32,000 bases of DNA from Candidatus Sulfobium sp. (GCA_037380845.1 JARRRI010000006.1:30991-62990); one strand, 5' to 3'; positions 12,804-31,886 are shown, counted from the stretch's first letter. The notes: generated by a model not told the origin, from the letters alone. Numbers and translations are program-made.

Positions 12804-13586
12804 ATGATAAGAAATACGTTCTGCATACTTGACGGCATAGGAGAGAAGCTGGAAAGACGACTCTGGAGGGAGGGAATTCTCACCTGGGCGGACTTCACGG
12901 ACGCAGGTGAGGTCCTCGGCTTCAGCAGGGAGCGGAAGAAGGCCTTCGACGAGCGGCTCGGATGCGACCGGTGCGAGCTCGATGCGGGCAATGCCCGGTA
13001 CTTTTCCTCACGTATGAAGAGGAGGGAACACTGGCGTCTATTCGATACTTTCAAGGACCATGCTGTCTGCCTGGACATAGAGACGAACGGATACCAACCC
13101 GGCGCCGGAGGGTACGTCACCGTAGTGGGACTCTATGACGGTTTCGACTACAAGTGCCTCGTCAGGGGAGAGAACCTCAGTGCCGAAAACCTGAACAATG
13201 AACTGTCGAGGTACAAATGCCTCGTCACTTTTTACGGTGCGGCGTTTGATGTACCCTTTATGTTGAGGTCCTTCAACGGGCTCAAATTCGACATCCCCCA
13301 TTTCGACCTTTGCTTTGCGGCGAAGAGGCTGGGCATCAAAGGCGGGCTCAAACGGCTCGAACAGGATTTCGGGATTGAACGGGACGAGGCCGTACGCGGA
13401 CTGGACGGGTACGATGCAGTCAAGCTGTGGGAGCTTGCACGCCGTGGATCATACGAAGCCCGCGAGACACTCATAAAGTACAACCGGGAAGACACTGTAA
13501 ACCTTATGGGGATGGCGCCTGTCTTCTACGAGAAACTGAAGCAGTCGACCGGCATAGAGGAATACCTTACTTGTGGAGTCGCTTGA
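12804..13586 (+). CDS. RNase H-like / PolB-exonuclease-like domain protein (YprB, COG3359 type)
   Basis: Acidic exonuclease-like motifs are present: VCLDIETNG, LVTFYGAAFDVPFM and YNREDTVNL. The N-terminal helix-hairpin-like ILDGIGEKLERRLWREGI matches this family's layout. Confidence 0.75.
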   Translation: MIRNTFCILDGIGEKLERRLWREGILTWADFTDAGEVLGFSRERKKAFDERLGCDRCELDAGNARYFSSRMKRREHWRLFDTFKDHAVCLDIETNGYQPGAGGYVTVVGLYDGFDYKCLVRGENLSAENLNNELSRYKCLVTFYGAAFDVPFMLRSFNGLKFDIPHFDLCFAAKRLGIKGGLKRLEQDFGIERDEAVRGLDGYDAVKLWELARRGSYEARETLIKYNREDTVNLMGMAPVFYEKLKQSTGIEEYLTCGVA

Positions 13587-14445
13587 CGCCTTTCTCACAT
13601 ATCTGTCAGTAGAAAAGGGCCTCGCCGGGAATACCCTCGAGTCATACTCTTCAGACCTGAAAAAATTTAGCGGCTTCCTGAAAAAAAGGAAGCGGGGCCT
13701 TGAGTCGGCTTCCGCAACGGACATTGCGGATTTCCTCGAGACGCTGGTCGACGGGGGATATTCGATCTCCAGTATAGGCAGGTATTTGTCATCCATGAGG
13801 GCCCTTTACAGGTACATGCTCGTAGAGGACATCATTGCAGAGGACCCCTCTGAAAACATCCAGAGCCCGAGGAAATGGGAAAGACTTCCGAAGGCGCTGA
13901 GCATCTCCGATGTGATGGAGCTGCTGGCGGCCGAGCCGGAAGGCGGAACGGCGCTCAGGGATTCGGCCATGCTGGAGCTGATGTATTCTTCCGGACTGAG
14001 AGTGAGCGAGCTTACCTCCATAAAGCTGGGCGATATCCATTTCGATGCGGGGTTTATAAGAGTCATGGGTAAAGGCTCGAAAGAGCGTGTGGTCCCGGTC
14101 AATGCCAGGGCCCTTGAGAAGGTAAAAAGGTATATGAGCGGGGAGCGGCCGTCGATACTCGGCAAGAGGCGGTCGGTTTACCTCTTCGTTACGAAGAGGG
14201 GCGGACCGATGACCAGGCAGAGGTTCTGGCAGACACTCAAGTCGATAGGCAGGAAGGCAGGGATTGAGCTCTCTCCTCACACATTAAGACACTGTTTCGC
14301 TACCCATCTGCTCGAAGGCGGGGCAGACCTCAGGTCCGTACAGAAGATGCTCGGCCATTCCGACATTTCCACAACACAGGTCTACACAAAAGTCACCACC
14401 GACAGGATCAAGAAGGTTTTCAAGAAATACCATCCGAGGGCCTGA
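13573..14445 (+). CDS. xerD: Site-specific tyrosine recombinase XerD
   Basis: The N-terminal core-binding motif is FLTYLSVEKGLAGNTLESYSSDLKKF. The catalytic region is HTLRHCFATHLLEGGADLRSVQKMLGHSDISTTQVYT. The GTG start overlaps the upstream gene by 14 nt. Confidence 0.9.
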   Translation: MESLDAFLTYLSVEKGLAGNTLESYSSDLKKFSGFLKKRKRGLESASATDIADFLETLVDGGYSISSIGRYLSSMRALYRYMLVEDIIAEDPSENIQSPRKWERLPKALSISDVMELLAAEPEGGTALRDSAMLELMYSSGLRVSELTSIKLGDIHFDAGFIRVMGKGSKERVVPVNARALEKVKRYMSGERPSILGKRRSVYLFVTKRGGPMTRQRFWQTLKSIGRKAGIELSPHTLRHCFATHLLEGGADLRSVQKMLGHSDISTTQVYTKVTTDRIKKVFKKYHPRA

Positions 14446-14571: not shown

Positions 14572-14633
14572 TTGAATCAGATATGGAGAAGAGACAGTGA
14601 GAGTTGGACCAACAAGCCTTTAGGGGGACAGGC

Positions 14634-15740
14634 ATGGGCGGGATTAACGAGGAAGATAAGGGCAGGGGAAAAGGAACAAAGACCGTACCGGTCACAGATG
14701 CGGTTGGTACGGTCCTTGCTCATGATATTACCGAGATAAGGAAGGACGAGTTCAAGGGGCGGGCCTTCAGAAAGGGACATGTGGTCAGGCAAGAGGACGT
14801 CTGTCACCTCCAGAGGCTCGGCAAGGAGCATCTCTTCGTCCTGAAGATAGCAGAGGACGAGATTCATGAAGACGAGGCGGCATTTGCTCTTGCGAAGGCC
14901 CTCGCCGGAGAAGGGGTGGAGATAAGGGATAAACCAAAGGAAGGCAAGCTGACGCTACTGGCTGCCAGGGACGGGCTCCTGAGAATAAACAGGAAGGCGC
15001 TCCTCGAATTTAATCTCCTCGGCGATGTTATGTGCGCGACGGCCCACGATGCGACGATTGTCAGGAAGGGGCAGGCCGTTGCCGGAACCAGGGCCATCCC
15101 TCTGGTTGTAAAACGCGATGTGATAAGCCGGGCAACTGCTATCGGGCGTGAGGCCGGCAGGGTGATCCACGTAAAGGAAATCAGAAAGCCCCGGGCAGGC
15201 GTTGTGATCACCGGCAATGAAGTCTATTCCGGAAGAATAAGGGATTGCTTTGCGCCGGTTATCACGGAAAAGGTGGAGTCGTTCGGCGGGGAGATAGTGG
15301 GGCTCCATTATGCGCCCGATGACGAGCCGTTTATAGAAGAAAAACTCAGGGAATTGATAGAAGCGGGAGCCGACCTTCTTGTCACGACCGGTGGAATGTC
15401 GGTTGACCCCGACGATGTTACAAGATTTGCCATAAGTAGACTCGGGGCGTCGGAGATTACCTATGGCTCGGCGGTCCTGCCCGGAGCGATGGTCCTTGTG
15501 GCCTATATAGAGAGAAGGCCTTCAGTCCCGGGTATGCCGGGTCCCCGGGATATGATCCCGGTGATCGGCATTCCGGCCTGCGGAATGTACAGCAAGATGA
15601 CGGTCTTCGACCTGGTTTTTCCCAGGATACTCGCCGGCGAACGAATAGGCAGGAAGGAGCTGGCAGAACTGGGACACGGGGGGCTTTGTCTGAAGTGCGA
15701 GGTCTGCCGATATCCGGTCTGCCCATTCGGTAAATACTGA
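14634..15740 (+). CDS. Molybdopterin-binding protein (MoeA-like N-terminal region plus MoCF-biosynthesis domain) with a C-terminal CxxCxxCxxxxC motif
   Basis: The MoCF-type domain reads AGVVITGNEVYSGRIRDCFAPVI...ADLLVTTGGMSVDPDDVT. The C-terminus is GGLCLKCEVCRYPVCPFGKY. I preferred the ATG at 14634, which has GGGGGA 5 nt upstream, over the TTG at 14604. Confidence 0.7.
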   Translation: MGGINEEDKGRGKGTKTVPVTDAVGTVLAHDITEIRKDEFKGRAFRKGHVVRQEDVCHLQRLGKEHLFVLKIAEDEIHEDEAAFALAKALAGEGVEIRDKPKEGKLTLLAARDGLLRINRKALLEFNLLGDVMCATAHDATIVRKGQAVAGTRAIPLVVKRDVISRATAIGREAGRVIHVKEIRKPRAGVVITGNEVYSGRIRDCFAPVITEKVESFGGEIVGLHYAPDDEPFIEEKLRELIEAGADLLVTTGGMSVDPDDVTRFAISRLGASEITYGSAVLPGAMVLVAYIERRPSVPGMPGPRDMIPVIGIPACGMYSKMTVFDLVFPRILAGERIGRKELAELGHGGLCLKCEVCRYPVCPFGKY

Positions 15741-16015
15741 AATCAGGTGGAATGATTTTAGACTGGTGATAGCCTGAAGTCTCACTGTTCAACTCCTTTG
15801 CAGTTGGCGCAAGCCCCTTGTTCTGCTTCCGGATTTCACTGCTTTTTCGGGCCTTCCTAGCATCACTTATGCCCTTATAAATTAATACAATCGGCTAAAC
15901 CCTTTATTTTATATTGAAAATATGTTATTTTTTCTAACTTTATTTGTTTTAGCCGGAAAGCCTGCAGGAGTTTCCGCTTTCATCTAAATTTGTCATGAGA
16001 AAGGAGCCCCCGGGG

Positions 16016-16873
16016 ATGCTGATAATAGGCGAGAAATTGAGCATCATAGCGAAGAGAGTAAGAGAAGCGATGATGAAGAAGGACAAAGGACCGATCCAGG
16101 AGATAGCCACACGGCAGTGGAAAGAAGGTTCCGGCATAATCGACGCCAATATCGGACCAGCGGAAGACGGCGGAGAGGATCTGATGCAGTGGATGGTGAC
16201 GGCGATACAGGAAGTCGTCCCCCTTCCCGTCTGTCTGGACACAACGAACGCAAGCGCAATCGAGGCGGGACTTAAGGTCCATAACAACGAGTGGGGGCGG
16301 CCCTTGATAAACTCGACTTCAAACGATCCCGAGAGGTTTCCGATTCTCGAACTTGGAGCAAAATATAACGCTCAGGTTATCGGTCTCACAGTCGGGAAGG
16401 GCGGGCTTCCCGCAGATGCGGAGGAAAGGTGCGGAATAGCGGCGGAGATAATGGCCAGGGCGATGGAATACGGGGTGCCCCTGGAAGACCTTTATCTGGA
16501 TCCCCTCGTTCTGCAGATAGCAACTACACAGGACCAGGCAGCGAAGGTCATCGATGCGGTGCGGATGTTCCAGGAGATGAACGAACCGCCGATGAAGACC
16601 GTTGTCGGACTGAGCAATATTTCCAACGGCTGCCCCAAGCACGTAAGGCCTGTTCTTAACAAATATTACTTCCTGATGCTCCTGAACGCAGGCCTGACAG
16701 CGGCAATCGCCGACGCCCGGGAAATGGCGGAAGCCATGGAAGAGAAGAAGCTGTTCGACGATGTCGCGGCCGGAAAAGATATCGCAGACGCCGGGAAGAT
16801 GAAAGAAATAAGGAAGACGATAGATGTGATCATGGGCAATACGCTTTATGCCCATTCATATCTGGAAATGTGA
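16016..16873 (+). CDS. acsE: Methyltetrahydrofolate:corrinoid/iron-sulfur protein Co-methyltransferase
   Basis: The translation MLIIGEKL...DANIGPA...VPLPVCLDTTNASAIEAGLK...LINSTS...LYLDPLVLQIATTQD...VVGLSNISNG aligns colinearly, from memory, with Moorella AcsE (pterin-binding TIM barrel). GGAG lies 9 nt upstream of this ATG. Confidence 0.93.
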   Translation: MLIIGEKLSIIAKRVREAMMKKDKGPIQEIATRQWKEGSGIIDANIGPAEDGGEDLMQWMVTAIQEVVPLPVCLDTTNASAIEAGLKVHNNEWGRPLINSTSNDPERFPILELGAKYNAQVIGLTVGKGGLPADAEERCGIAAEIMARAMEYGVPLEDLYLDPLVLQIATTQDQAAKVIDAVRMFQEMNEPPMKTVVGLSNISNGCPKHVRPVLNKYYFLMLLNAGLTAAIADAREMAEAMEEKKLFDDVAAGKDIADAGKMKEIRKTIDVIMGNTLYAHSYLEM

Positions 16874-17030: not shown

Positions 17031-17972
17031 ATGGCTTTTACACCGACCAAGGAGACGTATTCCGGAAAGGTATATCCGGTTTCTATCGGGACGGGCGAAA
17101 GTGAGGTCACTTTCGGCGGAGAGAACGTCCTTCCGTTCCATTCCTTCGAGGGTGAGACCCCGAACGGACCGCTGATCGCTTATGAAATACAGGATGTGCC
17201 GCCTTCCGACTGGCCGGAGAACGTCAGGAAGCCTTATGAGGCCGTATCAGACGATCCGGTAAAATGGGCCAAGCACTGCCAGGAGGGGCTCAAGGCGAAG
17301 GCGATAGCGCTGCGTCTGACAGGTACGCATCCCGACAGAGAGAACCGCTCTCCGGAAGACGCCACGAAGACCATTCAGGATGTACTCGCTGCGATAAGCG
17401 TGCCCCTTATCATCCTGGGCAGCAACCATGCCGAGAAGGACTCCGCGGTCCTGGTGGCTGCCTCTGAAGCGGCAAAGGGCAAGAATTGCATTATCGGCAA
17501 GGCGCAGGAGGCAAATTACAAGACTATTGCCGCTGCGGCCATGGCCAACAACCATAAACTCATTGCCATGTCCGAACTCGACATCAACCTCTCGAAGCAG
17601 CTGAACATTCTCATCACCCAGATGGGATTCGAAAAGGAGAGGGTCATCACAGACCCGATGTGTTCGGCCCTGGGATACGGTCTTGAATATACCTATTCGG
17701 TGATGGAGCGGATAAGGCTTGCCGCGCTGACGCAGAACGATGCGATCATGCAGCCTCCGATGATGGGAGACGTTGGCATGTATGTCTGGAAGATCAAGGA
17801 AACCCAGGCATCTGAAACGGACATGCCGGAGTGGGGCGCCGCAGAGGAGAGGGGAATCGCCTGGGAGGCGGTCACGGCAGCTTCGCTCCTGGCAGCCGGC
17901 GCAGAGCTCTTGATAATGAGACATCCGAAGGCCGTGGAAGCGGTCGGGAATTTCCTGGAAGAACTGGCGTAA
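17031..17972 (+). CDS. acsD: Corrinoid/iron-sulfur protein small subunit
   Basis: The translation FGGENVLPFHSFEGE...IQDV...WP...LNILITQMGF...ITDPMCSALGYGLEYTYSVMERIRLAAL...ERGIAWEAVTA...LLIMRHP aligns colinearly with AcsD/CdhD. SD GGAGG precedes the ATG. Confidence 0.93.
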   Translation: MAFTPTKETYSGKVYPVSIGTGESEVTFGGENVLPFHSFEGETPNGPLIAYEIQDVPPSDWPENVRKPYEAVSDDPVKWAKHCQEGLKAKAIALRLTGTHPDRENRSPEDATKTIQDVLAAISVPLIILGSNHAEKDSAVLVAASEAAKGKNCIIGKAQEANYKTIAAAAMANNHKLIAMSELDINLSKQLNILITQMGFEKERVITDPMCSALGYGLEYTYSVMERIRLAALTQNDAIMQPPMMGDVGMYVWKIKETQASETDMPEWGAAEERGIAWEAVTAASLLAAGAELLIMRHPKAVEAVGNFLEELA

Positions 17973-18030: not shown

Positions 18031-19374
18031 ATGGCTTTATCGGGTGTTGAAATATTCAAGCTTTTACCTAAGACGAACTGCAAGAAATGCGGATTTCCGA
18101 CCTGCCTGGCTTTTGCCATGAAACTCGCTCAGAGACAGGCCTCGCTTGATGCCTGCCCGGATGTTTCCGAGGAGGCGAAGAAGGTCCTCGGAGAGGCATC
18201 CGCCCCCCCTGTACGGCCGATCACCTTCGGCACGGGTGACAAGGCAGTAAAGATGGGAGAGGAGACCGTCCTCTTCAGGCATGACAAGAAATTCGTTAAC
18301 CCCTGCGCATTTGCCGTGGAGATCCAGGATACTCTGTCCGAGGCCGACATAGCAGGCATTGCCGAACAGGTCGTGAATTCGGAGATAGACAGGGTGGGGC
18401 AGAAACTGAGGGTCGACGCTATTGCGTTGACCAACGTGTCGGGCGACGCAGGAAAGCTGGAGGCTGCTGCAAAGACAGTGGCGGCAAAGGCCCCCGGGGT
18501 GCCTGTAATCATATGCACGGAGAACGATCAGGCGGCCGATGCTGCGGTGAAGGTATTTGCAGGGCAGAAACCGGTCATTTTCGGCGCCAACGCCTCCAAC
18601 GTCGAGGCCATGGCGAACGTTGCCAAGGCGAACAAGGCTGTTCTCGGCATATCGGCCAACGGCCTCGAGGAACTCTCTGCGCTGACTGAGAAGGTGAAAT
18701 CACTCGGTGTGGAGGACATGGTGCTTGATTCAGGCGCCAGAAAGGCGAAGGACATACTTGAGCACAACACGCTGATCAGGAGGGCGGCGGTAAAGAAGAA
18801 TTTCAAGCCCCTGGGATATCCCATAATAAACTTCGTACAGCGGGAAGACGCTCTTCTGGAGACGCTGGTGGCTTCTCTGGGCGTAGCTAAATACGGATCG
18901 ATCGTCGTGATGAAGAATATCGAGAAGTGGAAGAACGTTGCTCTCTTCACCCTCAGGCAGAACATTTATACTGACCCTCAGGTGCCGATGCAGGTCGAAC
19001 AGAAGGTCTACAACATCGGCGAGCCGAAGGCGGAATCACCGCTCTTCATTACTACGAACTTCTCGCTGACATACTTCATCGTATCCGGCGAGATAGAGAA
19101 CAGCAAGGTGGCCAGCAGGCTGGCAGTGATGGACTGTGAAGGGCTTTCGGTCCTGACGGCATGGGCCGCCGGGAAGTTCACCGCTTCAAAGATAGCCCAG
19201 TTTATCACCGAAAGCGGTGTGGACAAGGAGATAGCCGGCAAGGAGCTGATCATACCCGGTTATGTCGCGATCCTCAGCGGCTCGATCGAGGACAAACTGC
19301 CGGGCTGGAAGATTACTGTAGGTCCGCGCGAGGCCAACGCCATACCGGCGTTCCTTAAGGGCCGGGCTGCTTAG
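18031..19374 (+). CDS. acsC: Corrinoid/iron-sulfur protein large subunit
   Basis: The N-terminal [4Fe-4S] motif is LPKTNCKKCGFPTCLAFAMKLA...LDACP. Further matches to AcsC/CdhE are LFRHDKKF, RQNIYTDPQVP, TTNFSLTYF and LSVLTAWAAGKF. Confidence 0.95.
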   Translation: MALSGVEIFKLLPKTNCKKCGFPTCLAFAMKLAQRQASLDACPDVSEEAKKVLGEASAPPVRPITFGTGDKAVKMGEETVLFRHDKKFVNPCAFAVEIQDTLSEADIAGIAEQVVNSEIDRVGQKLRVDAIALTNVSGDAGKLEAAAKTVAAKAPGVPVIICTENDQAADAAVKVFAGQKPVIFGANASNVEAMANVAKANKAVLGISANGLEELSALTEKVKSLGVEDMVLDSGARKAKDILEHNTLIRRAAVKKNFKPLGYPIINFVQREDALLETLVASLGVAKYGSIVVMKNIEKWKNVALFTLRQNIYTDPQVPMQVEQKVYNIGEPKAESPLFITTNFSLTYFIVSGEIENSKVASRLAVMDCEGLSVLTAWAAGKFTASKIAQFITESGVDKEIAGKELIIPGYVAILSGSIEDKLPGWKITVGPREANAIPAFLKGRAA

Positions 19375-19579
19375 CGGGAAAGAACTTGCTCTTTATTGTA
19401 AGAATTTCCTGTTAGTCATCTCCCGCAATGGCGGGAATCCAATCTTCTTTTTTTCAGGAGATAACGGATTCCCGATTACTGCCTCGGGCATGTCCAACAG
19501 AGAGATATCTGATATGGCGCAGTCTTGTGTCGGATAGATAAGGCGATAATCTAACAATTTGATTTTATACAGCAAAAAA

Positions 19580-19609
19580 TTGAAAAATAGAATATTAGTG
19601 AGTTAGGAT
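19580..19609 (+). promoter_or_regulatory. Candidate internal promoter upstream of acsB (TTGAAA-18 nt-TAGGAT) in an AT-rich stretch
   Basis: TTGAAA lies at 19580-19585 and TAGGAT at 19604-19609. A TAGAAT hexamer is also present at 19588-19593. The element sits about 50 nt upstream of the acsB ATG. This is a hexamer match only. Confidence 0.25.
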
Positions 19610-19658
19610 GGGAGATTCCAGCTTGATGAGCTCCTATCCATAATTAGAGGAGGTCAGG

Positions 19659-24018: not shown

Positions 24019-24504
24019 ATGAAAGTTGAAGAAATAAATGTTGATGAGAGGATAGGAAGTGTCGGGGAGGTCCTGACAGAGGAGCAGAAGAAAAGGGGCG
24101 TGCTGATCCACGCCCTGCAGAAAATTCAGAAGGAGCATAATTATCTGCCGGAGGAGGTATTGAAGGACCTTGCAAAGAAGCTCAACTTGCCTCTCTCGGA
24201 GGTTTACAGCACGGCGTCCTTCTATAAACACTTCTACTTCAAGCCCAGAGGCAGGAATGTGGTATGTGTATGTCTCGGAACCGCGTGCCACGTCAGGGGA
24301 GCGGGCAAGGTCCTCGAAAAGATCGAAGAGAGTTTCGGGATAAGTGAGGGCGAGACGACGGAGGACATGTCGTTGACCCTGGAGACCGTGGGCTGCGTCG
24401 GATGCTGCGGCCTGGCGCCGGTCGTCACCGTGAATGATGAGGTTGAAGGCGACCTCAACCCGAAAAGGGTCACCGATTTAATAGAAACGATCAAGGGGAA
24501 ATAG
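24019..24504 (+). CDS. NuoE/HydC/HndA-like thioredoxin-fold [2Fe-2S] subunit
   Basis: The translation ALQKIQKEHNYLPEEVLKDLAKKLNLPLSEVYSTASFYKHF...VCLGTACHVRGA...VGCVGCCGLAPV gives the CX4C...CX3C ligand pattern. Confidence 0.9.
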   Translation: MKVEEINVDERIGSVGEVLTEEQKKRGVLIHALQKIQKEHNYLPEEVLKDLAKKLNLPLSEVYSTASFYKHFYFKPRGRNVVCVCLGTACHVRGAGKVLEKIEESFGISEGETTEDMSLTLETVGCVGCCGLAPVVTVNDEVEGDLNPKRVTDLIETIKGK

Positions 24505-24507
24505 AAG

Positions 24508-26847
24508 ATGGGCAAATTAAATTCGATACACGACCTGAAGAAACTCAGGGCCCTTCTTGAGGAGGAGACCTTCGCCCCTGATATACCCAGGATCAGGATG
24601 TGCAGCGGAACGGCCTGCACTGCGACGGGGACTCCCAAAGTGCTTACGGCGCTGGAAGAGGAGGCGGGCCGGAGAGGGATCAAACTTGACGTAGTGAAGA
24701 CAGGCTGTCAGGGACTCTGCCAGAAGGGCCCCGTAATGCGGGTGGAACCGCAGGGTATATTCTACCAGAAGGTAAAGCCCGAACACGCCAAATGGATAAT
24801 GACCTACACGGTTGCGGGGGGCGTGCCTTACCGCCAGAGCCTTTACCGGGAAGATATCATGAGCGAGCCCGTGCCGGAGATGGCCAATGTGCCTTTTTAC
24901 AGAAAGCAGCTCAGGATAGCCCTCAGGAACAACGGTGTGATTGACCCGCGCAATATCTATCACTATATCGCGGTGGGAGGATATAAGGCCCTCGAAAAGG
25001 CCCTCTCCTCCATGGCCCCCGAGGATGTCATGAATGAAGTCGACAATGCAATGCTACGGGGCCGCGGCGGCGCGGGATTCCCGGCGGGCAAGAAGTGGAG
25101 ACACACGAAGGGTGCGCCCGGCTCGATCAAGTTTGTCATAGCAAACGGCGACGAGGGTGACCCCGGCGCCTTCATGGACAGGTCGGTTATGGAGGGCGAC
25201 CCTCACAGTCTCTTCGAGGGGATGATCCTCTGCGCTTATGCGATAGGTGCCCGCTACGGTATGGTCTATGTAAGGCACGAATACCCGCTGGCGGTCAAGA
25301 ACCTCGGCATAGCGATAAAACAGGCGGAAGAGATCGGGCTGCTCGGGAAGAACATCCTCGGCAGCGGTCTCGATTTCACGATAGACATAAGGGAGGGAGC
25401 GGGGGCCTTCGTCTGCGGTGAATCGACCGCCCTGGTTGCATCTATAGAAGGGGAGAGGGGCTTCCCGAGGCCGAGACCGCCGAGACTGTCTGAGCCCGGC
25501 GGAGGGGCCTGGGGTTATCCCAGCAACCTCAACAACATCGAGACTTACGCCTGTGTTCCGCCGATCGTCGAAAAAGGGGCTGGCTGGTTCAGGAGCATCG
25601 GCACCGAGAGTTCTCCGGGGACGAAGGTCTTCGCTCTTACCGGAAAGGTGAAGAATACCGGGCTGGTGGAGGTACCGATGGGTATGACCATCAGGGAGAT
25701 AATCTACGATATCGGTGGCGGCATCCTCGGGAACAAGGAATTCAAGGCTGTGCAGACCGGAGGGCCGTCGGGCGGTTGCCTGCCGGCAAGCTTTCTCGAC
25801 CTGCCGGTGGATTTTGACTCTCTCACGAAGGCGGGCTCCATGATGGGCTCGGGTGGAATGGTCGTTCTGGATGAGGACACATGCATGGTGGACGTGGCAA
25901 AATACTTCCTCTCCTTTACGCAATCGGAGTCCTGCGGCAAGTGCCCGCCGTGCAGGATCGGCACTTACCAGATGCTCCAGATATTAGAGAAGATAACCTC
26001 CGGTCAGGGTGAACAGGGCGACATCGAACGCCTCATAGAACTTGGGAAATCCATTCAGCATGGATCACTCTGCGGTCTCGGACAGAGCGCGCCGAACCCG
26101 GTTTTGAGCACCATAAAGTATTTCAGACAGGAATACGAGGAGCACATCCATGACAACTATTGCAGGGCTAAGGTATGCAGCAACATGGGCGTCTTCGTCA
26201 TCAACCAGGCGGAGTGCATAAGGTGCGGTCTCTGCGAACAGGCCTGTGCTTTTGACGCTGTCACCGAGACAAGAGAGATGTACCAGATCGACCGCGCATA
26301 CTGCACAAGGTGCAAGGCTTGTTACCTTGCATGCCCTGTAGGTGCGGTCAAGATCAGGAAGCACAGCGTGGTGAAGCTGGAAGAACAGTTCAGGATACCT
26401 TCTGAGAAAATAGAAGTCCTTGAAAGGAGGGCTAGAATGACACTCAAAGACCTCATGCAGTCGAAGCCAACCAAGATGGTCACCTGCGGTAAGGATTCGA
26501 AGGTGGCGGAGGCCATCAGCATCATGGACAGCAACAATATAGGGTCTGTTCTGGTAGTCGACGAGGAGAAGAAGATCGTGGGCATATTTACCGAAAGGGA
26601 CATCATGCACTGTTTTGCCAAAAAGATCGCGGTTAACGAAACTGCCCTGGGCGACGTGATGACGCAAAAGCCCGTGACCCTGGACGGTTCCATAGATATA
26701 AGTGTTGCGGTCAAGGTGATGTCGGAGAAGAAGATCAGGCATCTGCCGGTGACCGAGGACGAAAAGGTCATCGGCATGATCTCTTACAGGGACCTTGTCT
26801 CCTACCTGCTGCCGGAGGTTATTTACATGGCAGAGGACATTTATTAA
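24508..26847 (+). CDS. NuoF/HydB-like FMN/NAD(H)-binding subunit with an N-terminal [2Fe-2S] domain, C-terminal 2x[4Fe-4S] and a fused CBS-domain pair
   Basis: The domains run in this order:
- A thioredoxin-like N-terminus (CSGTACTA...GCQGLCQKGP).
- The NuoF core (GRGGAGFPAGKKW, ANGDEGDPGAFMDR, GAGAFVCGESTALVASIEG, ESCGKCPPCRIG).
- Two ferredoxin motifs (CIRCGLCEQAC, CTRCKACYLACP).
- Roughly 135 aa typical of a CBS pair (SVLVVDEEKKIVGIFTERDI...IRHLPVTEDEKVIGMISYRDL). Confidence 0.92.
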   Translation: MGKLNSIHDLKKLRALLEEETFAPDIPRIRMCSGTACTATGTPKVLTALEEEAGRRGIKLDVVKTGCQGLCQKGPVMRVEPQGIFYQKVKPEHAKWIMTYTVAGGVPYRQSLYREDIMSEPVPEMANVPFYRKQLRIALRNNGVIDPRNIYHYIAVGGYKALEKALSSMAPEDVMNEVDNAMLRGRGGAGFPAGKKWRHTKGAPGSIKFVIANGDEGDPGAFMDRSVMEGDPHSLFEGMILCAYAIGARYGMVYVRHEYPLAVKNLGIAIKQAEEIGLLGKNILGSGLDFTIDIREGAGAFVCGESTALVASIEGERGFPRPRPPRLSEPGGGAWGYPSNLNNIETYACVPPIVEKGAGWFRSIGTESSPGTKVFALTGKVKNTGLVEVPMGMTIREIIYDIGGGILGNKEFKAVQTGGPSGGCLPASFLDLPVDFDSLTKAGSMMGSGGMVVLDEDTCMVDVAKYFLSFTQSESCGKCPPCRIGTYQMLQILEKITSGQGEQGDIERLIELGKSIQHGSLCGLGQSAPNPVLSTIKYFRQEYEEHIHDNYCRAKVCSNMGVFVINQAECIRCGLCEQACAFDAVTETREMYQIDRAYCTRCKACYLACPVGAVKIRKHSVVKLEEQFRIPSEKIEVLERRARMTLKDLMQSKPTKMVTCGKDSKVAEAISIMDSNNIGSVLVVDEEKKIVGIFTERDIMHCFAKKIAVNETALGDVMTQKPVTLDGSIDISVAVKVMSEKKIRHLPVTEDEKVIGMISYRDLVSYLLPEVIYMAEDIY
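26425..26439 (+). promoter_or_regulatory. Internal Shine-Dalgarno (AGGAGG) plus in-frame ATG exactly at the start of the CBS pair
   Basis: The sequence gaaAGGAGGgctagaATGaca has a 6-nt spacer. The ATG at 26437 is in frame with the 24508 ORF (codon 644). Confidence 0.4.
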
Positions 26848-26858
26848 GGGGAAGTATC

Positions 26859-27449
26859 ATGACAGAGCAGAAAGAACCTAAAGTAGAAGAGATAAAGAAG
26901 GCGGCGGAGGAGGAGAAGAAATGTCCGGTCCAGAGGTCTCTGTTTTACATAGAGGGCTTCCTTGACGGGCCGATGTGCGGCAGATGCTTCCCGTGTGCCT
27001 TCGGCAGTTACGAGGCGCGGGTCAGGCTGAAGAGAATCATCCAGGGACGGGGCGGTGAGGACGACATCAGGACGCTGCGGCGCATATCGGAGGAGATGCT
27101 GACCAGTTCCCGGTGCAAGAAGGGCAAAGACACGGCGGCATTCCTGACGGAGTGGCTAAACACTGACGTCTTCAGGAGACATGCGGAAGGAAGCTGCCCC
27201 GACATGGAGTGTAAATCCCTGATCGAATACCGGATCATTCCTGAGAAGTGCACCATGTGCGGCCTCTGCCTGGAGGCATGCAAATACGCCGCAATTCACG
27301 GAGAGAAGAGGAGACCGTTTGCTTCGGGGTATTCTCCCTTCGAGATCCGCCAGAAGAGGTGTGTAAAGTGTGGAGACTGTCTGCCTGTGTGCCCCTATGG
27401 CGCAATAGTGATTGTAGAAAAAGAGGTGCCGGCCCCGGTCGGCGGATAA
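26859..27449 (+). CDS. Iron-sulfur protein: stand-alone NuoF C-terminal (N3-type 4Fe-4S) domain fused to a 2x[4Fe-4S] ferredoxin domain
   Basis: PMCGRCFPCAFGSYEARVRLKRIIQGRGGEDDIRTLRRISEEMLTSSRCKKG follows the NuoF pattern ESCGKCxPCReG...(about 40 aa)...C. It is followed by CTMCGLCLEACKYAAI and CVKCGDCLPVCPYGAI. Confidence 0.8.
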   Translation: MTEQKEPKVEEIKKAAEEEKKCPVQRSLFYIEGFLDGPMCGRCFPCAFGSYEARVRLKRIIQGRGGEDDIRTLRRISEEMLTSSRCKKGKDTAAFLTEWLNTDVFRRHAEGSCPDMECKSLIEYRIIPEKCTMCGLCLEACKYAAIHGEKRRPFASGYSPFEIRQKRCVKCGDCLPVCPYGAIVIVEKEVPAPVGG

Positions 27450-27489
27450 ATGGCGGGTGTCTGAGCCTGTAATTTTATAGGAGGATTGG

Positions 27490-29511
27490 ATGGGAAAGAC
27501 GGTAAATCTTAAAATAGACGGAAAGGACGTTCAGGTTGCGGAGGGCCTCAACCTCATCGAGGCAGCGGCCGAGGCCGGGGTTCACATCCCGAACCTCTGC
27601 TATCTGAAGGGCATGAAGGGCATCGGAGCCTGCAGGCTCTGCTTGGTGGAGATCGAAGGCATGAAGTCGCCCATGATCGCCTGCACCACAAAGGCCAAGG
27701 ACGGCATGGTGGTCAATACGAAGACCGAGAAGGTCCAGGAGGTCAGGAAGTTCGTGGTAGATCTTATCCTGTCCATGCACCCCCTTGACTGTATGACCTG
27801 CACCAAGGCGGGTGTCTGCAACTTGCAGCAATATGCCTACGATTTCGAGATAAAGGAATCGAGTTTTTCGAGGAAGAAGTTCGGCTATCCGATAGACGAA
27901 GCCAATCCTTTCATAAAGAGAGATCCCGATTACTGCGTTCTCTGCGGAAGGTGCATACGTGTATGCCAGGCCCAGGACACCAACGTTCTGGAGTTCTCCG
28001 GCAGGGGTGTGGGCGCCAGGGTCGTCACTGCGGAGGACAAGCCACTGCAGGAGTCTGATTGCACCTTCTGCGGAAGCTGTGTGGACGCGTGCCCGGTAAA
28101 CGCCCTCCTTGAAGCCGACCGGTGGAGAAAGGGGCGTGAATGGGAATATGAAAAAACGGACTCCGTCTGTCTTTCGTGTGGTAACGGATGCAGCATTACG
28201 GTGAGCACAAAAGACGGAGAGGTAATAAAGATAAACTCGGGTGCTCCGGAAGGAACCGCCGAGCGGTTCATCTGTGCCAGGGGAAGGTTTGGATTCGACA
28301 GCCTCACCAGCGACCAGCGCGTGGGAACTCCGATGAAAAGGGTCGACGGTGATCTTCAGGAGACGACATGGGATGATGCCATTGAAACGGTTGCGGGGAA
28401 ACTGAAGGCGGCCGGCCAGGATGCCTCGATCGTCAGCAGCGCAAACATTCTGAATGAAGACGCACTATTACTGAAGAAACTGGCTTCCGATGTGGTGAAA
28501 ACAAGGAACGTCGACTCTTCCGTAACTCTGTATTCTGACTATGATTCACTGAAGAACGGCACGGCGGACCTGCAGAATGCCGACCTGTTCATCCTGGCAG
28601 GAACGGCACCCGACCAGTGGACAAGAGTCCTGCCGGCCCTCGACGCGGTTATCAGAAGGAAGATGAACAATGACGGCGCAAAGCTGATCGTTATCAATTC
28701 GGGTGATACCAAGATCGCGTCAAAGGCAACCGCCAACCTTAAGGGCGACGAGGTGAAAAAGCTTGAGGAGCTTGCCCAGGCCATGATCTCTAAAGGCGTA
28801 AAGGCCCCGAAAGAGATGGTGGAAGCCCTCGCATCCGTCGACCCCTCTGACGAGGCCATGAACGCCGCGGACATCCTTGTGGCCGCGAAATCACCCGTTA
28901 TCCTTGCCGCCCCCGCTCTTTACAGGGCTGCCGCCAACCTCTCGCTCATAAAGTCCGAGGCTGTGTCGGTGCCTCTTGAGGCAAACTCCAAAGGCGTGGC
29001 GCTCATGGGCCTGACGACGGAAGGGAAGAAATTCAGGGAGATAATTTCCTCTCATTCAAAAGCACTCTATGTGGTCGGAGAAGTGCCGGTGAGCGAGAGG
29101 CCGGATACTGATTTCCTCGTAGTACAGGCTTCCCACATGACAGGCCTGGCGAAGGAGGCCGATGTGGTCCTGCCGTCGGCAGCTGCACTCGAATCGGGGG
29201 GGACGATAGTGGATTATCTCGGAAGGTTGAAAGAGGTCAAAAAGGCGGTGGAGCCTGCCGGTGATGCGCTTCCGCATTCAGTGATATTCACGGCAGTTGC
29301 GAAGGCTATGGGCGCCTCTCTGAAGACTCCGAAGGACACAGAAGTCAAAAAGGCCCTGAAAGGAAAAGTGAAGGCCTCCTTCAGTCCTTTCCGGAAAGAT
29401 AAGGACCTCGACGTTGATGTGGAGAAGTTTAACGAGGATATAAATATGTCGACCATAAACGGTTCGAGGCTTCTCTGGCTGAAGGAGCTTGAGAAGGGAG
29501 TGGCTGCGTAG
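27490..29511 (+). CDS. NuoG-like Fe-S subunit ([2Fe-2S], His-ligated and 2x[4Fe-4S] motifs, degenerate molybdopterin-oxidoreductase domain)
   Basis: The N-terminus is a 2Fe-2S ferredoxin (CYLKGMKGIGACRLCLVE...IACTT), followed by HPLDCMTCTKAGVCNLQ, CVLCGRCIRVC and CTFCGSCVDACP. A MopB-type CLSCGNGC...ICARGRFGFD follows. Where FDH-type enzymes carry CARxCH, this protein reads NVDSSVTLYS. No H-cluster motifs are present. Confidence 0.9.
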   Translation: MGKTVNLKIDGKDVQVAEGLNLIEAAAEAGVHIPNLCYLKGMKGIGACRLCLVEIEGMKSPMIACTTKAKDGMVVNTKTEKVQEVRKFVVDLILSMHPLDCMTCTKAGVCNLQQYAYDFEIKESSFSRKKFGYPIDEANPFIKRDPDYCVLCGRCIRVCQAQDTNVLEFSGRGVGARVVTAEDKPLQESDCTFCGSCVDACPVNALLEADRWRKGREWEYEKTDSVCLSCGNGCSITVSTKDGEVIKINSGAPEGTAERFICARGRFGFDSLTSDQRVGTPMKRVDGDLQETTWDDAIETVAGKLKAAGQDASIVSSANILNEDALLLKKLASDVVKTRNVDSSVTLYSDYDSLKNGTADLQNADLFILAGTAPDQWTRVLPALDAVIRRKMNNDGAKLIVINSGDTKIASKATANLKGDEVKKLEELAQAMISKGVKAPKEMVEALASVDPSDEAMNAADILVAAKSPVILAAPALYRAAANLSLIKSEAVSVPLEANSKGVALMGLTTEGKKFREIISSHSKALYVVGEVPVSERPDTDFLVVQASHMTGLAKEADVVLPSAAALESGGTIVDYLGRLKEVKKAVEPAGDALPHSVIFTAVAKAMGASLKTPKDTEVKKALKGKVKASFSPFRKDKDLDVDVEKFNEDINMSTINGSRLLWLKELEKGVAA

Positions 29512-29540
29512 GATTACGGCGACTCTTCCGGAAAGACGAA

Positions 29541-29572
29541 GGGCGGACCTGCCGGGGCCGCCCTTTTTTATT
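29541..29572 (+). terminator. Rho-independent terminator closing the acs-nuo gene string
   Basis: The hairpin GGGCGGaCC-tgccg-GGgCCGCCC (6 bp, one mismatch, 2 bp) is followed directly by TTTTTTATT. It lies 30 nt after the NuoG-like stop. Confidence 0.8.
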
Positions 29573-29679: not shown

Positions 29680-30354
29680 ATGGCCGCTCTAACTGGAAAT
29701 TTCCAACCCCGGGACTTTGAGGAGGCCGGGGACATACAGGAACATGTCAGAAGAGAGGTCCGCATAATCCCGTTGGAAGGGGAGCCTGTCCTTGTCGCGG
29801 CGGCGGATGCTGCGTACAGCGACGATTCAGTGGTTGCGGCGGCTTCCCTGTACTCATATGCCGGATTGGCCCATGTAGCCGATGCTTTTTTCAGGGGCCG
29901 GCCAAGCTTCCCGTACAGAAGCGGATTTTTGGCCTTCCGTGAAGGTTCAGCCATAGCCGGTGCCCTGAAAAAACTGGAACGGCCTGATGTTATCCTGATC
30001 GACGGCCAGGGCATTGCTCATCCGCGGGGAGCCGGCATTGCGTCTCACATCGGGGTTATTCTCAATAAGCCGACCATAGGATGTGCAAAAACACGGCTTA
30101 CCGGCCGCTTCGACGAGCCCGGAGCGACCAGGGGCTGTTGGACATACCTGTACGAGGAAAGGACAGGCCTTCAGCCCATCGGTGCGGTACTGAGGACGAG
30201 GAGTCATGTAAAGCCACTTTTCATATCTCCGGGACACCTCATCGATATTGAATCCAGCGTCCGCATCGTTTTGGGGTGCTTCTCCGGTTACAGGATTCCC
30301 GAGCCTCTCAGAAGAGCGGATAAACTGTCGAAAACATTAAGCAGGGATGCCTAG
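29680..30354 (+). CDS. nfi: Endonuclease V
   Basis: The translation PLEGEPVLVAAADAAY...FPYRSGFLAFREG...PDVILIDGQGIAHPRGAGIASHIGVILNKPTIGCAK matches conserved Nfi motifs. The ATG at 29680 gives an N-terminal length like Thermotoga and E. coli EndoV. A GTG at 29644 is an alternative start. Confidence 0.9.
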   Translation: MAALTGNFQPRDFEEAGDIQEHVRREVRIIPLEGEPVLVAAADAAYSDDSVVAAASLYSYAGLAHVADAFFRGRPSFPYRSGFLAFREGSAIAGALKKLERPDVILIDGQGIAHPRGAGIASHIGVILNKPTIGCAKTRLTGRFDEPGATRGCWTYLYEERTGLQPIGAVLRTRSHVKPLFISPGHLIDIESSVRIVLGCFSGYRIPEPLRRADKLSKTLSRDA

Positions 30355-31031
30355 GTTTTCGCCGATTTGCTTTTGATGAAAGAGTCTATCGAGGCCCTAT
30401 GGTGAGATTTCAGATCGAGGAAACGAACTCCATAGTGGTAAGCGTCTGTCCCGTTTGCGGCTACCCTCATCACTTCTGCGTCGGCAGTGATCCTTTCGGC
30501 CCCCGGCAGGAAAAAAGAGCAGGATATGGAATCACCTTTCTCGAGTTTCTTGTCCGTCTCGATGAGGATGCCCGATGTGCTTATATTCTGCGAAGAGCAG
30601 AAGAATGTTTCACCCGGCGATTTTCCGTTTACGCTCACTTTTAAGAGGACCCTGTAGCTCTTTCTTTCCGGGATGTCGAGAAGCTGACTGACTTTTTCAA
30701 GAAGTTGCAGCGGCCTGATCGGTTTGGTAATGTAAGCGTTGGCCTGACAGCGTTTAAACCTGTTCATATCGGAGTCACTGTTGGTTCCCACTATGATCAC
30801 GGAGACCTGTTGGAGTACCGGATCTCTTCTAATCTGGGAACAGAGTTCATCTCCGTTAAGTTCAGGCATTTCCAGGTCCATGACGATAAGGTCCATCTTC
30901 TCCGAACGGTGCAGTTCCAGGGCCTCCCGGCTTGAAGTGGTGGTGAATATTGTAAAATCCGATCTGTTGAGGATGCTTTTTTCTTTTTCTATGAAGGCAT
31001 GCACGTCATCTACGATCAATATCTTTTTCAT
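30351..31031 (-). CDS. Response regulator with receiver (REC) and PilZ (c-di-GMP-binding) domains
   Basis: The REC domain reads MKKILIVDD...DLIVMDLEMPELNG...AYITKP. The PilZ motifs are RKSYR (RxxxR) and NISTSG (D/NxSxxG). I chose the ATG at 31031 rather than the TTG at 31070, which falls inside the putative -35 hexamer. Confidence 0.88.
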   Translation of the reverse strand: MKKILIVDDVHAFIEKEKSILNRSDFTIFTTTSSREALELHRSEKMDLIVMDLEMPELNGDELCSQIRRDPVLQQVSVIIVGTNSDSDMNRFKRCQANAYITKPIRPLQLLEKVSQLLDIPERKSYRVLLKVSVNGKSPGETFFCSSQNISTSGILIETDKKLEKGDSISCSFFLPGAERITADAEVMRVAANGTDAYHYGVRFLDLKSHHRASIDSFIKSKSAKT

Positions 31032-31040
31032 GGGTTTTCT

Positions 31041-31070
31041 TTTATACCGGAAGAAAGCGGCGTTTGTCAA
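31041..31070 (-). promoter_or_regulatory. Near-consensus sigma70 promoter (TTGACA-18 nt-TATAAA) for the REC-PilZ gene
   Basis: On the minus strand, TTGACA lies at 31065-31070 and TATAAA at 31041-31046. Only 9 nt separate the -10 hexamer from the ATG, which implies a leaderless or near-leaderless mRNA. Confidence 0.5.
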
Positions 31071-31100: not shown

Positions 31101-31886
31101 TCATGCGGCGGGGAGGGAATCTTTTCCTGCGTTTGACCGCACCGCGAAATAGACATAGGCGGTGGAAATCAGCAGACTGATGTACCACCAGTAAGGTATG
31201 TCCAGCGCGGCGACGGCAACGAATACACCCAGGATAACAGAAGGCGTGATGGCGATGACCGCCAGACGCACCAGAGTCCGGAACCGCAGTTGCGCCTGCA
31301 GGGAACGGGCAAATATAAGGCCGATTGCGGCATAAAAGATGACCTCGACAATATGGTAGAAAAAAGAAAAAACAAGCGCCAGCGGGTAAAAGACAAATAT
31401 CGACCAGTCCTCAAAGCTGTCCATCCAGTCATAAATGACCTTGTGGTTTACGGTCAGCCTCCTGATATCCGACAGATCGAAGGTCCTTGTTTCAGTCTTA
31501 TCGGTCTTTATTTCTATGCTGTTTTTCGTGAGGAGAACCACGGCTTGCGATCCTTTGAGTGAGGCGACCTTTCCTGTAGTATCTATTATCATTACCGGCT
31601 TTCCGGTTTTTTTGTCTTTGATGTAATAAGGCTGCGGCTTTTTTACCGATACCTTGCCGTCTGCAACGGTAATGGTTGGGACCTGCTGCACGAAGCCGGG
31701 GGCCTCGGTGTTAAAAAAAGTTATCAGGTCCGCCCGAACTTTCATGACTCCGGGGATAACTGACAATGCAAGCAGGGCAAGAAGATAAGTCATGCAGAGC
31801 CCCTTCCAGTTTCTCGCTACGTCCTGATAAAGAGACTTTGAAAAGAATGACAGGTACAACGGATGGACTATGTTATATCTCTGCAT
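31101..31886 (-). CDS. DUF1189-like (YvdJ-like) membrane protein
   Basis: 261-aa ORF. An N-terminal helix (LCMTYLLALLALSVIPGV) is followed by a soluble loop and then 3-4 C-terminal helices. The size and layout resemble DUF1189. The family assignment is from memory. Confidence 0.65.
   Translation of the reverse strand: MQRYNIVHPLYLSFFSKSLYQDVARNWKGLCMTYLLALLALSVIPGVMKVRADLITFFNTEAPGFVQQVPTITVADGKVSVKKPQPYYIKDKKTGKPVMIIDTTGKVASLKGSQAVVLLTKNSIEIKTDKTETRTFDLSDIRRLTVNHKVIYDWMDSFEDWSIFVFYPLALVFSFFYHIVEVIFYAAIGLIFARSLQAQLRFRTLVRLAVIAITPSVILGVFVAVAALDIPYWWYISLLISTAYVYFAVRSNAGKDSLPAA

Follow-up and report, generated by a model that had tools for sequence, protein, structure and literature searches.

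The stretch of DNA considered here, a window of 32,000 nucleotides (nt) from Candidatus Sulfobium sp. (GCA_037380845.1 JARRRI010000006.1:30991-62990), a sulfate reducer of the Nitrospirota, encodes the carbon monoxide dehydrogenase/acetyl-CoA synthase (CODH/ACS) in a string of acs genes on one strand, the last of which, the Ni-CODH gene acsA, is followed by four further genes, bfuC, bfuB, X and bfuA, which form the subject of this analysis (Table 1). The gaps that precede these four same-strand open reading frames (57, 3, 11 and 40 nt, respectively) agree exactly with those given in an initial annotation made from the sequence alone, in which the genes had been described as a HydABC/Bfu-style module attached to the CODH/ACS genes and lacking a catalytic subunit of its own. 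Protein domains were assigned with Pfam and NCBIfam profiles, and the structural relatives quoted below are matches among Protein Data Bank (PDB) chains; for AcsA itself, the best such match is 6t7j_B (E = 5e-190).

Table 1. Genes and other features of the acs-bfu string; positions are counted from the first letter of the window.
Feature	Position	Strand	Evidence
acsE, methyltransferase	15995-16873	+	Pfam Pterin_bind
acsD, corrinoid Fe-S protein subunit	17031-17972	+	Pfam CdhD
acsC, corrinoid Fe-S protein subunit	18031-19374	+	Pfam FeS and CdhD
acsC-acsB spacer, 285 nt	19375-19658	+	folding z = -3.7; hairpins, T-run, promoter-like hexamers
acsB, acetyl-CoA synthase subunit, 732 aa	19659-21857	+	Pfam CODH_A_N, CdhC, ACS_CODH_B_C; NCBIfam NF040764, 1020 bits
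acsA/cooS, Ni-CODH catalytic subunit, 661 aa	21976-23961	+	Pfam Prismane, 525 bits; TIGR01702, 574 bits
bfuC, NuoE/HydC-like thioredoxin-like [2Fe-2S] subunit, 161 aa	24019-24504	+	Pfam 2Fe-2S_thioredx, 162 bits, full length
bfuB, HydB-type flavoprotein, 779 aa	24508-26847	+	Pfam; 7t2r_B, E = 8e-221 over residues 29-614
CBS-pair extension of bfuB, about residues 640-779	26425-26844	+	Pfam CBS, 2 stretches, 99 bits
X, Fe-S protein, 196 aa	26859-27449	+	Pfam NADH_4Fe-4S and Fer4_7
bfuA, NuoG/HoxU/FdhA-like subunit, 673 aa	27490-29511	+	Pfam Fer2_4, NADH-G_4Fe-4S_3, Fer4_7, Molybdop_Fe4S4, Molybdopterin
intrinsic terminator ending the gene string	29538-29572	+	RNA fold

The Pfam layout of BfuB comprises an N-terminal thioredoxin-like 2Fe-2S domain (residues 28-98), the flavin mononucleotide (FMN) domain (residues 178-351), an SLBB domain (residues 374-422), an N3-type NADH_4Fe-4S domain (residues 462-546), a 2x[4Fe-4S] domain (residues 562-620) and, finally, a pair of CBS domains. 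The extra N-terminal [2Fe-2S] and C-terminal 2x[4Fe-4S] domains that the initial annotation had noted on this NuoF-like protein are thus both confirmed, but the true C-terminus of BfuB is the CBS pair, which had been overlooked. The match to HydB of the Acetomicrobium mobile NiFe-HydABCSL hydrogenase (7t2r_B), a bifurcating enzyme proven by its structure, takes in all cofactor domains with every cluster cysteine aligned and bears out the HydABC/Bfu-style family assignment; the other top PDB matches are HydB, NfnB and StnB chains, and plain NuoF scores far lower and aligns with the core only (residues 148-546). BfuC, a full-length NuoE/HydC homologue whose gene ends 3 nt before the start of bfuB, supplies the adjacent [2Fe-2S] subunit that is characteristic of the BfuABC family, and BfuB supplies the corresponding NuoF-like FMN/NADH core with [2Fe-2S] and 2x[4Fe-4S] domains at its N- and C-terminal ends.

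The CBS pair is found on BfuB in about two thirds of family members and is likely to be a sensor of an adenosyl ligand, which suggests allosteric control by such a ligand. CBS-fused BfuB forms one cluster at 50% identity, and the next representative, 51% identical, is without CBS domains. The nearest non-CBS representative (P0241) carries a second NADH_4Fe-4S stretch, i.e. an X-like part fused to BfuB, on contigs that are too short to show the gene context. Other C-terminal additions occur among the relatives of BfuB (including P0241 and P0274), one of them a response-regulator receiver domain and several of them GltD-like fusions, and sensor or adaptor domains seem to turn up on BfuB repeatedly. 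Furthermore, bfuB itself is present in two adjacent copies (bfuC-bfuB-bfuB-X-bfuA) in loci L014, L024, L059 and L073, the last on a contig that is incomplete upstream, and in L082 the two copies flank X (bfuB-X-bfuB-bfuA); a single bfuC and a single bfuA are still found in these loci where the module is complete.

The nature of X had gone unrecognised in the initial annotation. By alignment, it is a free-standing paralogue of the C-terminal part of HydB, matching residues 434-594 of 7t2r_B and residues 465-626 of 7p5h_B (E about 1e-23) and nothing beyond the C-terminal 160 residues of HydB-type subunits. The protein is composed of an N3-type [4Fe-4S] helix bundle, conserved Cys/His positions and a 2x[4Fe-4S] domain, with 15 cysteines invariant in the 19 homologues compared, and the Cys/His positions align with what is presumed to be the Zn hinge of the HydB structures. 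In recent structural work on Bfu enzymes (PMC12018979), the HydB region that X duplicates is associated with ferredoxin binding. It is plausible, although speculative, that X acts as a tethered adaptor to the D-cluster of CODH. A second, distant X-like open reading frame (27-29% identity) lies ahead of X in L021, L045 and L074, and in L086 an X-bfuA pair follows genes of the Ni-insertion (PF01969) and AIR-carboxylase (PF00731) families, and neither bfuB nor bfuC is found in the 10 kb upstream of the pair.

In addition to a MopB domain, BfuA contains Fer2_4, the His-ligated NuoG cluster, two ferredoxin-type CxxCxxCxxxC motifs and Molybdop_Fe4S4, which together correspond to clusters A1-A5, and among which are the A1 [2Fe-2S], A2 His-ligated [4Fe-4S] and A4 motifs by which the BfuABC family is recognised. 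In the Pfam analysis of BfuA no [FeFe]-hydrogenase H-cluster domain was detected, PDB matches to HydA being limited to residues 5-218, nor were the GltD-like NADPH domain, Fer4_20 or Pyr_redox_2 of Stn/NfnABC enzymes, nor the Molydop_binding domain (PF01568). When 77 homologues were compared with the FdsA of R. capsulatus and with a selenocysteine (Sec)-containing FdhA from a related locus as references, the Cys/Sec-His segment of the formate dehydrogenase active site was found to be replaced by a 5-residue deletion in all 77. These results agree with the initial annotation, in which the NuoG-like protein was said to lack both the H-cluster motifs and the Cys/Sec-His segment; an intact catalytic site, the observation that it had named beforehand as speaking against its own proposal, was seen in 0 of the 77 homologues. 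Despite this loss, all 19 cluster cysteines of BfuA are invariant in the same homologues and the MopB-like part is 59% identical on average, which argues for a maintained, non-catalytic role of this part; judging from the alignments, the MopB domain is catalytically dead yet maintained, as in NuoG. In fact, no catalytic site for a third substrate was found in any of the four module proteins, either by Pfam or in the 77-homologue alignment of BfuA.

At the level of sequence, the module therefore falls within the BfuABC definition and outside those of formate dehydrogenase, [FeFe]-hydrogenase, Stn/Nfn-Bfu and the complex I N-module. As for the last of these, a detached, complex I-like N-module (NuoEFG, 'Nuo-Bfu') would accord with the observation that the best full-length NCBIfam model for BfuA is NuoG (350 bits, below the cut-off of 470; all NuoF and NuoG models fall below their cut-offs on the module proteins), with the alignment of NDUFS1 and Nqo3 along the whole of BfuA and with the description of Nuo-Bfu for Nitrospirae (PMC9304861). 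However, BfuB carries the HydB-type extra domains, the module lies outside any nuo operon in a window that holds no nuo genes, the genes conserved beside it belong to the acs, nfn and fdh groups rather than to nuo, and the nuoE, nuoF and nuoG of Ca. Sulfobium lie inside its nuoA-N operon (PMC5812927, Table S2). Given this separate nuoEFG set, the N-module reading was rejected and is considered scarcely credible.

The gene string ends at the intrinsic terminator downstream of bfuA, which folds as AAGGGCGG.CCU....GGGCCGCCCUU followed by a U-run (-20.6 kcal/mol, z = -2.7 relative to shuffled sequence), with only 1 of 200 shuffles equally stable. A terminator pattern scan overlooked this structure because of its bulged stem and loop, and as the matches of that scan were also not above those in shuffled sequence, RNA folding was used instead. 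At the acsA/bfuC and X/bfuA junctions no significant RNA structure was found (folding z = -0.6 and 0.0, respectively). Co-transcription of acsA with the module is plausible, given that no terminator or other structure is predicted between acsA and bfuC, that the gaps within the module are 3-40 nt and that a terminator follows bfuA. The claim that this is the only convincing terminator of the string holds for the terminator itself but is slightly overstated, as a terminator-like CCCGC..GCGGG hairpin, with a T-rich run 9 nt later (about 19420-19457), also lies between acsC and acsB, together with promoter-like hexamers at 19564-19609. In view of these hairpins, the T-run and the hexamers, the string possibly comprises two transcription units, acsEDC and acsB-acsA-bfuCBXA, and the spacer might serve as a terminator/promoter within the string or, alternatively, as a regulatory leader of the second unit. 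The length of the acsC-acsB spacer ranges from about 100 to 700 nt across related loci, and in one of them, L032, it is the corresponding place that the inserted bfu genes occupy.

The module is widespread. Metagenome contigs from JGI and Logan encode identical proteins, as does an NCBI metagenome-assembled genome (MAG) named Candidatus Sulfobium sp., and the names attached to homologues are, with almost no exceptions, Nitrospirae, Nitrospirota or Thermodesulfovibrionales. X is represented by 648 clusters among 5.8 billion proteins, its relatives are encoded in 225 of 185,579 GTDB species genomes, and the module is present in at least 225 species-level genomes. Among these is the cultured Dissulfurispira thermophila T55J, a chemolithoautotroph (Umezawa et al., 2021, as cited in PMC12998232), where the string, at AP022873.1, 534778-555392, reads acsE-D-C-B-A-bfuC-bfuB(CBS)-X-bfuA and is followed by nfnAB.

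Linkage between the module and the acs genes was assessed in both directions, outward from the module in the best 80 of the 225 species-level genome loci, which were reached via X and of which 61 were informative for acs context, and outward from acsA in 75 informative metagenome loci, which were reached via the Nitrospirota-type AcsA. Across the 80 genome loci the order bfuC-bfuB-X-bfuA is kept. Acs genes lie beside the module in 51 of the 61 informative loci, with acsA immediately 5' in 42 and acs genes elsewhere within 10 kb in 9, and are not seen in the other 10; in the opposite direction, bfuC lies directly 3' of the Nitrospirota-type acsA in 67 of 75 loci, and bfu genes are nearby in 3 more. 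The linkage seen in the initial annotation, which had proposed such a comparison of gene neighbourhoods, is thus conserved in related genomes. It is also retained where the gene order is permuted, as in acsE-D-C-[bfuCBXA]-acsB-acsA (L032), acsA-[bfuCBXA]-acsB (L020) and X-cooS-bfuC-bfuB (L039). The last of these, a 5.5-kb contig, encodes a CooS-like protein of 633 aa (62% identical to AcsA) and a BfuB of 611 aa without CBS domains, then a polyferredoxin of 201 aa, and by its gene content looks like a monofunctional Codh-Bfu; it derives from the same MAG as L026, whose module has no nearby acs genes.

Which subunits belong together is put to a rare natural test in L020, the most telling of these loci, which sits on a 367-kb contig of a Brocadiia genome. 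The AcsB encoded there is 73-79% identical to Brocadiales AcsB versus 53-54% to Nitrospirota AcsB, whereas the AcsA is 79-83% identical to Nitrospirota AcsA versus 46-47% to Brocadiales AcsA, and ordinary Brocadiales operons, arranged as cooC-acsA-acsB-...-acsC-RACo-..., are without bfu genes. Judged by these identities, acsA+bfuCBXA was horizontally transferred as a unit into a Brocadiia acs operon, where the cassette replaced the native acsA, an outcome that is to be expected if the module needs its cognate CODH.

The same locus bears on the suggestion, also made in the initial annotation, that the module might supply low-potential electrons for reactivation of the corrinoid Fe-S protein (Co2+ to Co1+). 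Such a role would suit a module that shares its string with acsC and acsD in a window where Pfam scans of the proteins detected no RACo gene (nor a cooC gene). However, the L020 operon contains a standard RACo activator (Fer2, RACo_linker, Raco_middle, RACo_C_ter) besides the module, the gene with which the module has remained linked and has moved is acsA and not acsC or acsD, and a flavin complex of 1,800 residues and about 13 clusters would seem disproportionate for occasional repair. Corrinoid reactivation is consequently judged a weaker alternative, and a very improbable one.

The conserved linkage and the cassette transfer support the initial proposal that NAD(H) and ferredoxin are coupled to CO2/CO, and a probability of about 0.5 is given to the reading that the module is a CODH(/ACS)-coupled, Bfu-type complex linking CO2/CO to NAD(H) and ferredoxin. 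Here AcsA, conserved beside the module and co-transferred with it, is the candidate for the third-substrate site. In the proposed mechanism, BfuC, BfuB, X and BfuA would form a soluble HydABC/Bfu-type flavin-iron-sulfur complex, with the third-substrate site supplied in trans by AcsA, the Ni-CODH subunit of CODH/ACS. NADH would be bound at the FMN of BfuB and ferredoxin would dock at the C-terminal 2x[4Fe-4S] domain of BfuB or of X, while the five-cluster chain of BfuA, together with X, would link the AcsA clusters B/D with the flavin site, and the dead MopB-like domain of BfuA would serve as the docking scaffold. The bifurcation or confurcation reaction predicted for such an assembly, with ferredoxin written as Fd, is 2 CO2 + NADH + 2 Fd(red) <-> 2 CO(bound) + NAD+ + 2 Fd(ox). 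During autotrophic growth, as in D. thermophila, the reaction would run reductively, and confurcation would allow NADH to give half of the electrons of the carbonyl branch, sparing costly Fd(red); during the acetate oxidation proposed for Ca. Sulfobium (PMC5812927) it would run oxidatively, with a share of the electrons passing straight to NAD+. The CBS pair of BfuB may tune the reaction to adenylate/cofactor status.

Several observations weigh against this reading. With standard potentials of -320 mV for NAD+/NADH, -420 mV for ferredoxin (about -500 mV in cells) and -520 mV for CO2/CO (PMC9304861), the CO2/CO couple (E0') lies below ferredoxin, so that no need for bifurcation is evident and it is sensible only at low effective CO (PMC9304861). 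Within CODH/ACS, CO is channelled to the A-cluster and consumed there, and under such conditions NADH and Fd(red) could jointly drive CO2 reduction. The overall couple of acetyl-CoA synthesis is much more positive than that of CO2/CO. A mirror-tree analysis of 35 loci, which gave r = 0.65 for AcsA-BfuA versus 0.43 for AcsA-AcsB, was discounted, as the values become 0.66 versus 0.64 when L020 is omitted, and no robust extra co-evolution of AcsA with BfuA is seen in that set. The C-terminal tail of AcsA, which extends about 35 residues beyond all solved CODHs and is conserved in Nitrospirota, was considered as a marker of the module and rejected, as a related tail is present in Brocadiales AcsA from bfu-less operons, and no feature of AcsA specific to the module-linked enzymes was found. 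Also significant is that linkage to the acs genes is not obligatory, since in 10 of the 61 informative loci (about 16%) no acs gene lies within 7-10 kb of the module, and that other genes recur beside it, namely nfnA-nfnB in 17 of the 80 loci and a Sec-FdhA with its own BfuBC, together with Fhs, in 4 of the 80 (L029, L048, L051 and L083).

The nfnAB and Fdh/Fhs neighbours keep alive an alternative in which the module is a free-standing, Wood-Ljungdahl-associated complex for NADH/ferredoxin balancing, working alone or with NfnAB and co-regulated with CODH/ACS but unbound to it, i.e. an Fd:NAD+ oxidoreductase or transhydrogenase-like hub whose electrons would pass via X or the ferredoxin pool. 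In its favour, nfnAB adjoins the module in D. thermophila as well, 7 of the 10 loci in which the module is distant from acs genes carry nfnAB or the Fdh/Fhs set, and a CBS sensor would suit a redox/energy-balancing valve. However, no route to bifurcation is known for a Bfu core that lacks a third redox partner, and a plain transfer of electrons from ferredoxin to NAD+ would waste the energy conserved by Rnf, which is reported in Ca. Sulfobium (PMC5812927). In addition, both the co-transfer of acsA with replacement of the native acsA in L020 and the position of the bfu genes between acs genes in L020 and L032 would be left unexplained, and this alternative is regarded as rather unlikely.

The genes 3' of the module in L029, L048, L051 and L083 encode a cyclic nucleotide (cNMP)-binding protein, a second BfuC/BfuB pair, the Sec-FdhA, which is marked by an in-frame TGA inside 'CARL*HAPT', and formate-tetrahydrofolate ligase, although the contig of L029 ends before FdhA. 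By its composition, the set of Sec-FdhA, bfuC2, bfuB2 and formate-tetrahydrofolate ligase genes represents a methyl-branch cluster of Fdh-Bfu type, and what the recurrent neighbours have in common is the balancing of ferredoxin and pyridine nucleotides for the Wood-Ljungdahl pathway. These loci also bear on the possibility that the module feeds electrons to a catalytic subunit whose gene lies elsewhere, be it a formate dehydrogenase or some other enzyme (Fdh-Bfu type 2/3), with BfuA a former FdhA that has lost its active site and is now a dock. The FdhA ancestry of BfuA, whose N-terminal part is 38-41% identical to Sec-FdhA and whose MopB fold is kept, would be in line with such a function, as would the Sec-FdhA and formate-tetrahydrofolate ligase genes that follow the module. 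However, the FdhA of those loci has its own bfuC2/bfuB2 and is thus independent of the module, no fdh gene lies within the window and the dominant, transferable partner is acsA, so that a formate dehydrogenase partner appears improbable.

Coupling to CODH/ACS is thus the preferred reading. Its fullest form, in which NADH and Fd(red) would be confurcated at the C-cluster by an AcsA-bound, CBS-gated BfuABC-X complex, the ferredoxin cost would be halved and acsA+bfuCBXA would be a mobile cassette with one crossing into Planctomycetota already behind it, is put forward tentatively, the odds being somewhat against it. No other step of the Wood-Ljungdahl pathway is as reducing as the conversion of CO2 to CO, which is commonly taken to be driven by ferredoxin only, and it is an unsolved question how energy-limited sulfate reducers and sulfur disproportionators meet this ferredoxin demand. 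If the proposal is true, NADH carries half the load, the sulfate reducers and sulfur disproportionators among the Nitrospirota run the pathway at half the textbook ferredoxin cost, and calculations of ATP yield change for a widespread subsurface lineage.

Elsewhere in the window, a protein of 378 aa whose only recognised domain is MoCF_biosynth/MoeA-like (residues 199-315), its N-terminal half being unassigned, is encoded at 14604-15740 (+), 254 nt upstream of acsE, with a promoter-like site just ahead of its gene. Just 5' of the acs region, at 12804-14445 (+), lie genes for an RNase_H_2-family protein and a XerC/D-type tyrosine recombinase, and further upstream a 1020-aa CheB-CheR fusion with PAS domains (5612-8674, -) adjoins a PAS histidine kinase (4217-5314, -). 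On the 3' side, the module is followed by genes for a response regulator-PilZ protein (30351-31070, -) and a DUF1189 protein (31101-31886, -). Rfam and transfer RNA scans of the window returned no match.

In the Ca. Sulfobium genome paper, the genes from acsE to cooS and a separate nuoA-N operon are reported and the four downstream genes are unmentioned (PMC5812927), and nuoEF genes near CODH/ACS are mentioned in passing in the literature for the candidate phylum NPL-UPA2. A literature search, with subscription-only papers outside its reach, found no description of this Nitrospirota module. The question of novelty, which the initial annotation had left to a later search, therefore has a divided answer: a CODH-linked Bfu enzyme has already been proposed for Firmicutes (PMC9304861), and the Nitrospirota module was not found described.

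Compared with complex I, the module has the NuoE, NuoF and NuoG folds in common with NuoEFG, NDUFS1 aligning over residues 5-617 of BfuA, and the MopB domain of NuoG is likewise cofactor-less; it differs in its HydB-type N- and C-terminal cluster domains, in the absence of a nuo operon around it and in that the host genus has a separate nuoEFG. The same subunit architecture is found in FdsABG (Type 1 Fdh-Bfu), where FdsA (6tg9_A) matches the cluster region and MopB fold of BfuA (E = 4e-67), but the Cys/Sec-His segment is deleted and the C-terminal pterin-capping domain absent from BfuA, and BfuB has an extra C-terminal 2x[4Fe-4S] domain. Closer still in regard to BfuB is the NiFe-HydABCSL of Acetomicrobium mobile (PDB 7t2r, Type 3 Bfu), which provides its closest solved relative; in the text of PMC9304861 this NiFe-Bfu is associated with clade 49, the BfuB clade of the Firmicutes Codh-Bfu. 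The host here is a member of the Nitrospirota. The HydA of that enzyme matches the N-terminal half of BfuA (E = 3.5e-62, residues 3-343) and is also without a catalytic site, separate catalytic subunits docking on it. In contrast, its partner is a NiFe hydrogenase large/small pair, whereas the only candidate here is CODH, and it has neither an X subunit nor a CBS pair.

The nearest precedent for a CODH partner is Codh-Bfu, a predicted and uncharacterised Type 2 BfuABC of Acetohalobium arabaticum and Clostridium cellulovorans (Schut et al., 2022, PMC9304861), the source in which CO is also listed among the third substrates of Bfu enzymes and in which only Nuo-Bfu is listed for Nitrospirae. Both systems have a BfuABC-type module encoded with a Ni-CODH gene, which in the present string adjoins the bfu cluster, acsA ending 57 nt before bfuC, and in both CO2/CO is the proposed third substrate beside NAD(H) and ferredoxin; cooS lies between bfu genes in Codh-Bfu, and a comparable placement is seen here in L020, L032 and L039. 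The four known Codh-Bfu sequences are confined to Firmicutes and combine a monofunctional CooS and extra [4Fe-4S] subunits with a BfuA that lacks A3 and A5 (PMC9304861), whereas the present module, found in Nitrospirota with at least 225 species genomes, is linked to an operon for a bifunctional CODH/ACS and has a BfuA with A1-A5 motifs and a degenerate MopB domain, which sets it apart from Type 2. The predicted Codh-Bfu idea would thereby gain a large natural family, with one member in cultured D. thermophila T55J, and, through the extra subunit X and the CBS pair often present on BfuB, the Bfu toolkit would gain two new parts, namely a separate paralogue of the C-terminal part of HydB and a sensor built from CBS domains.

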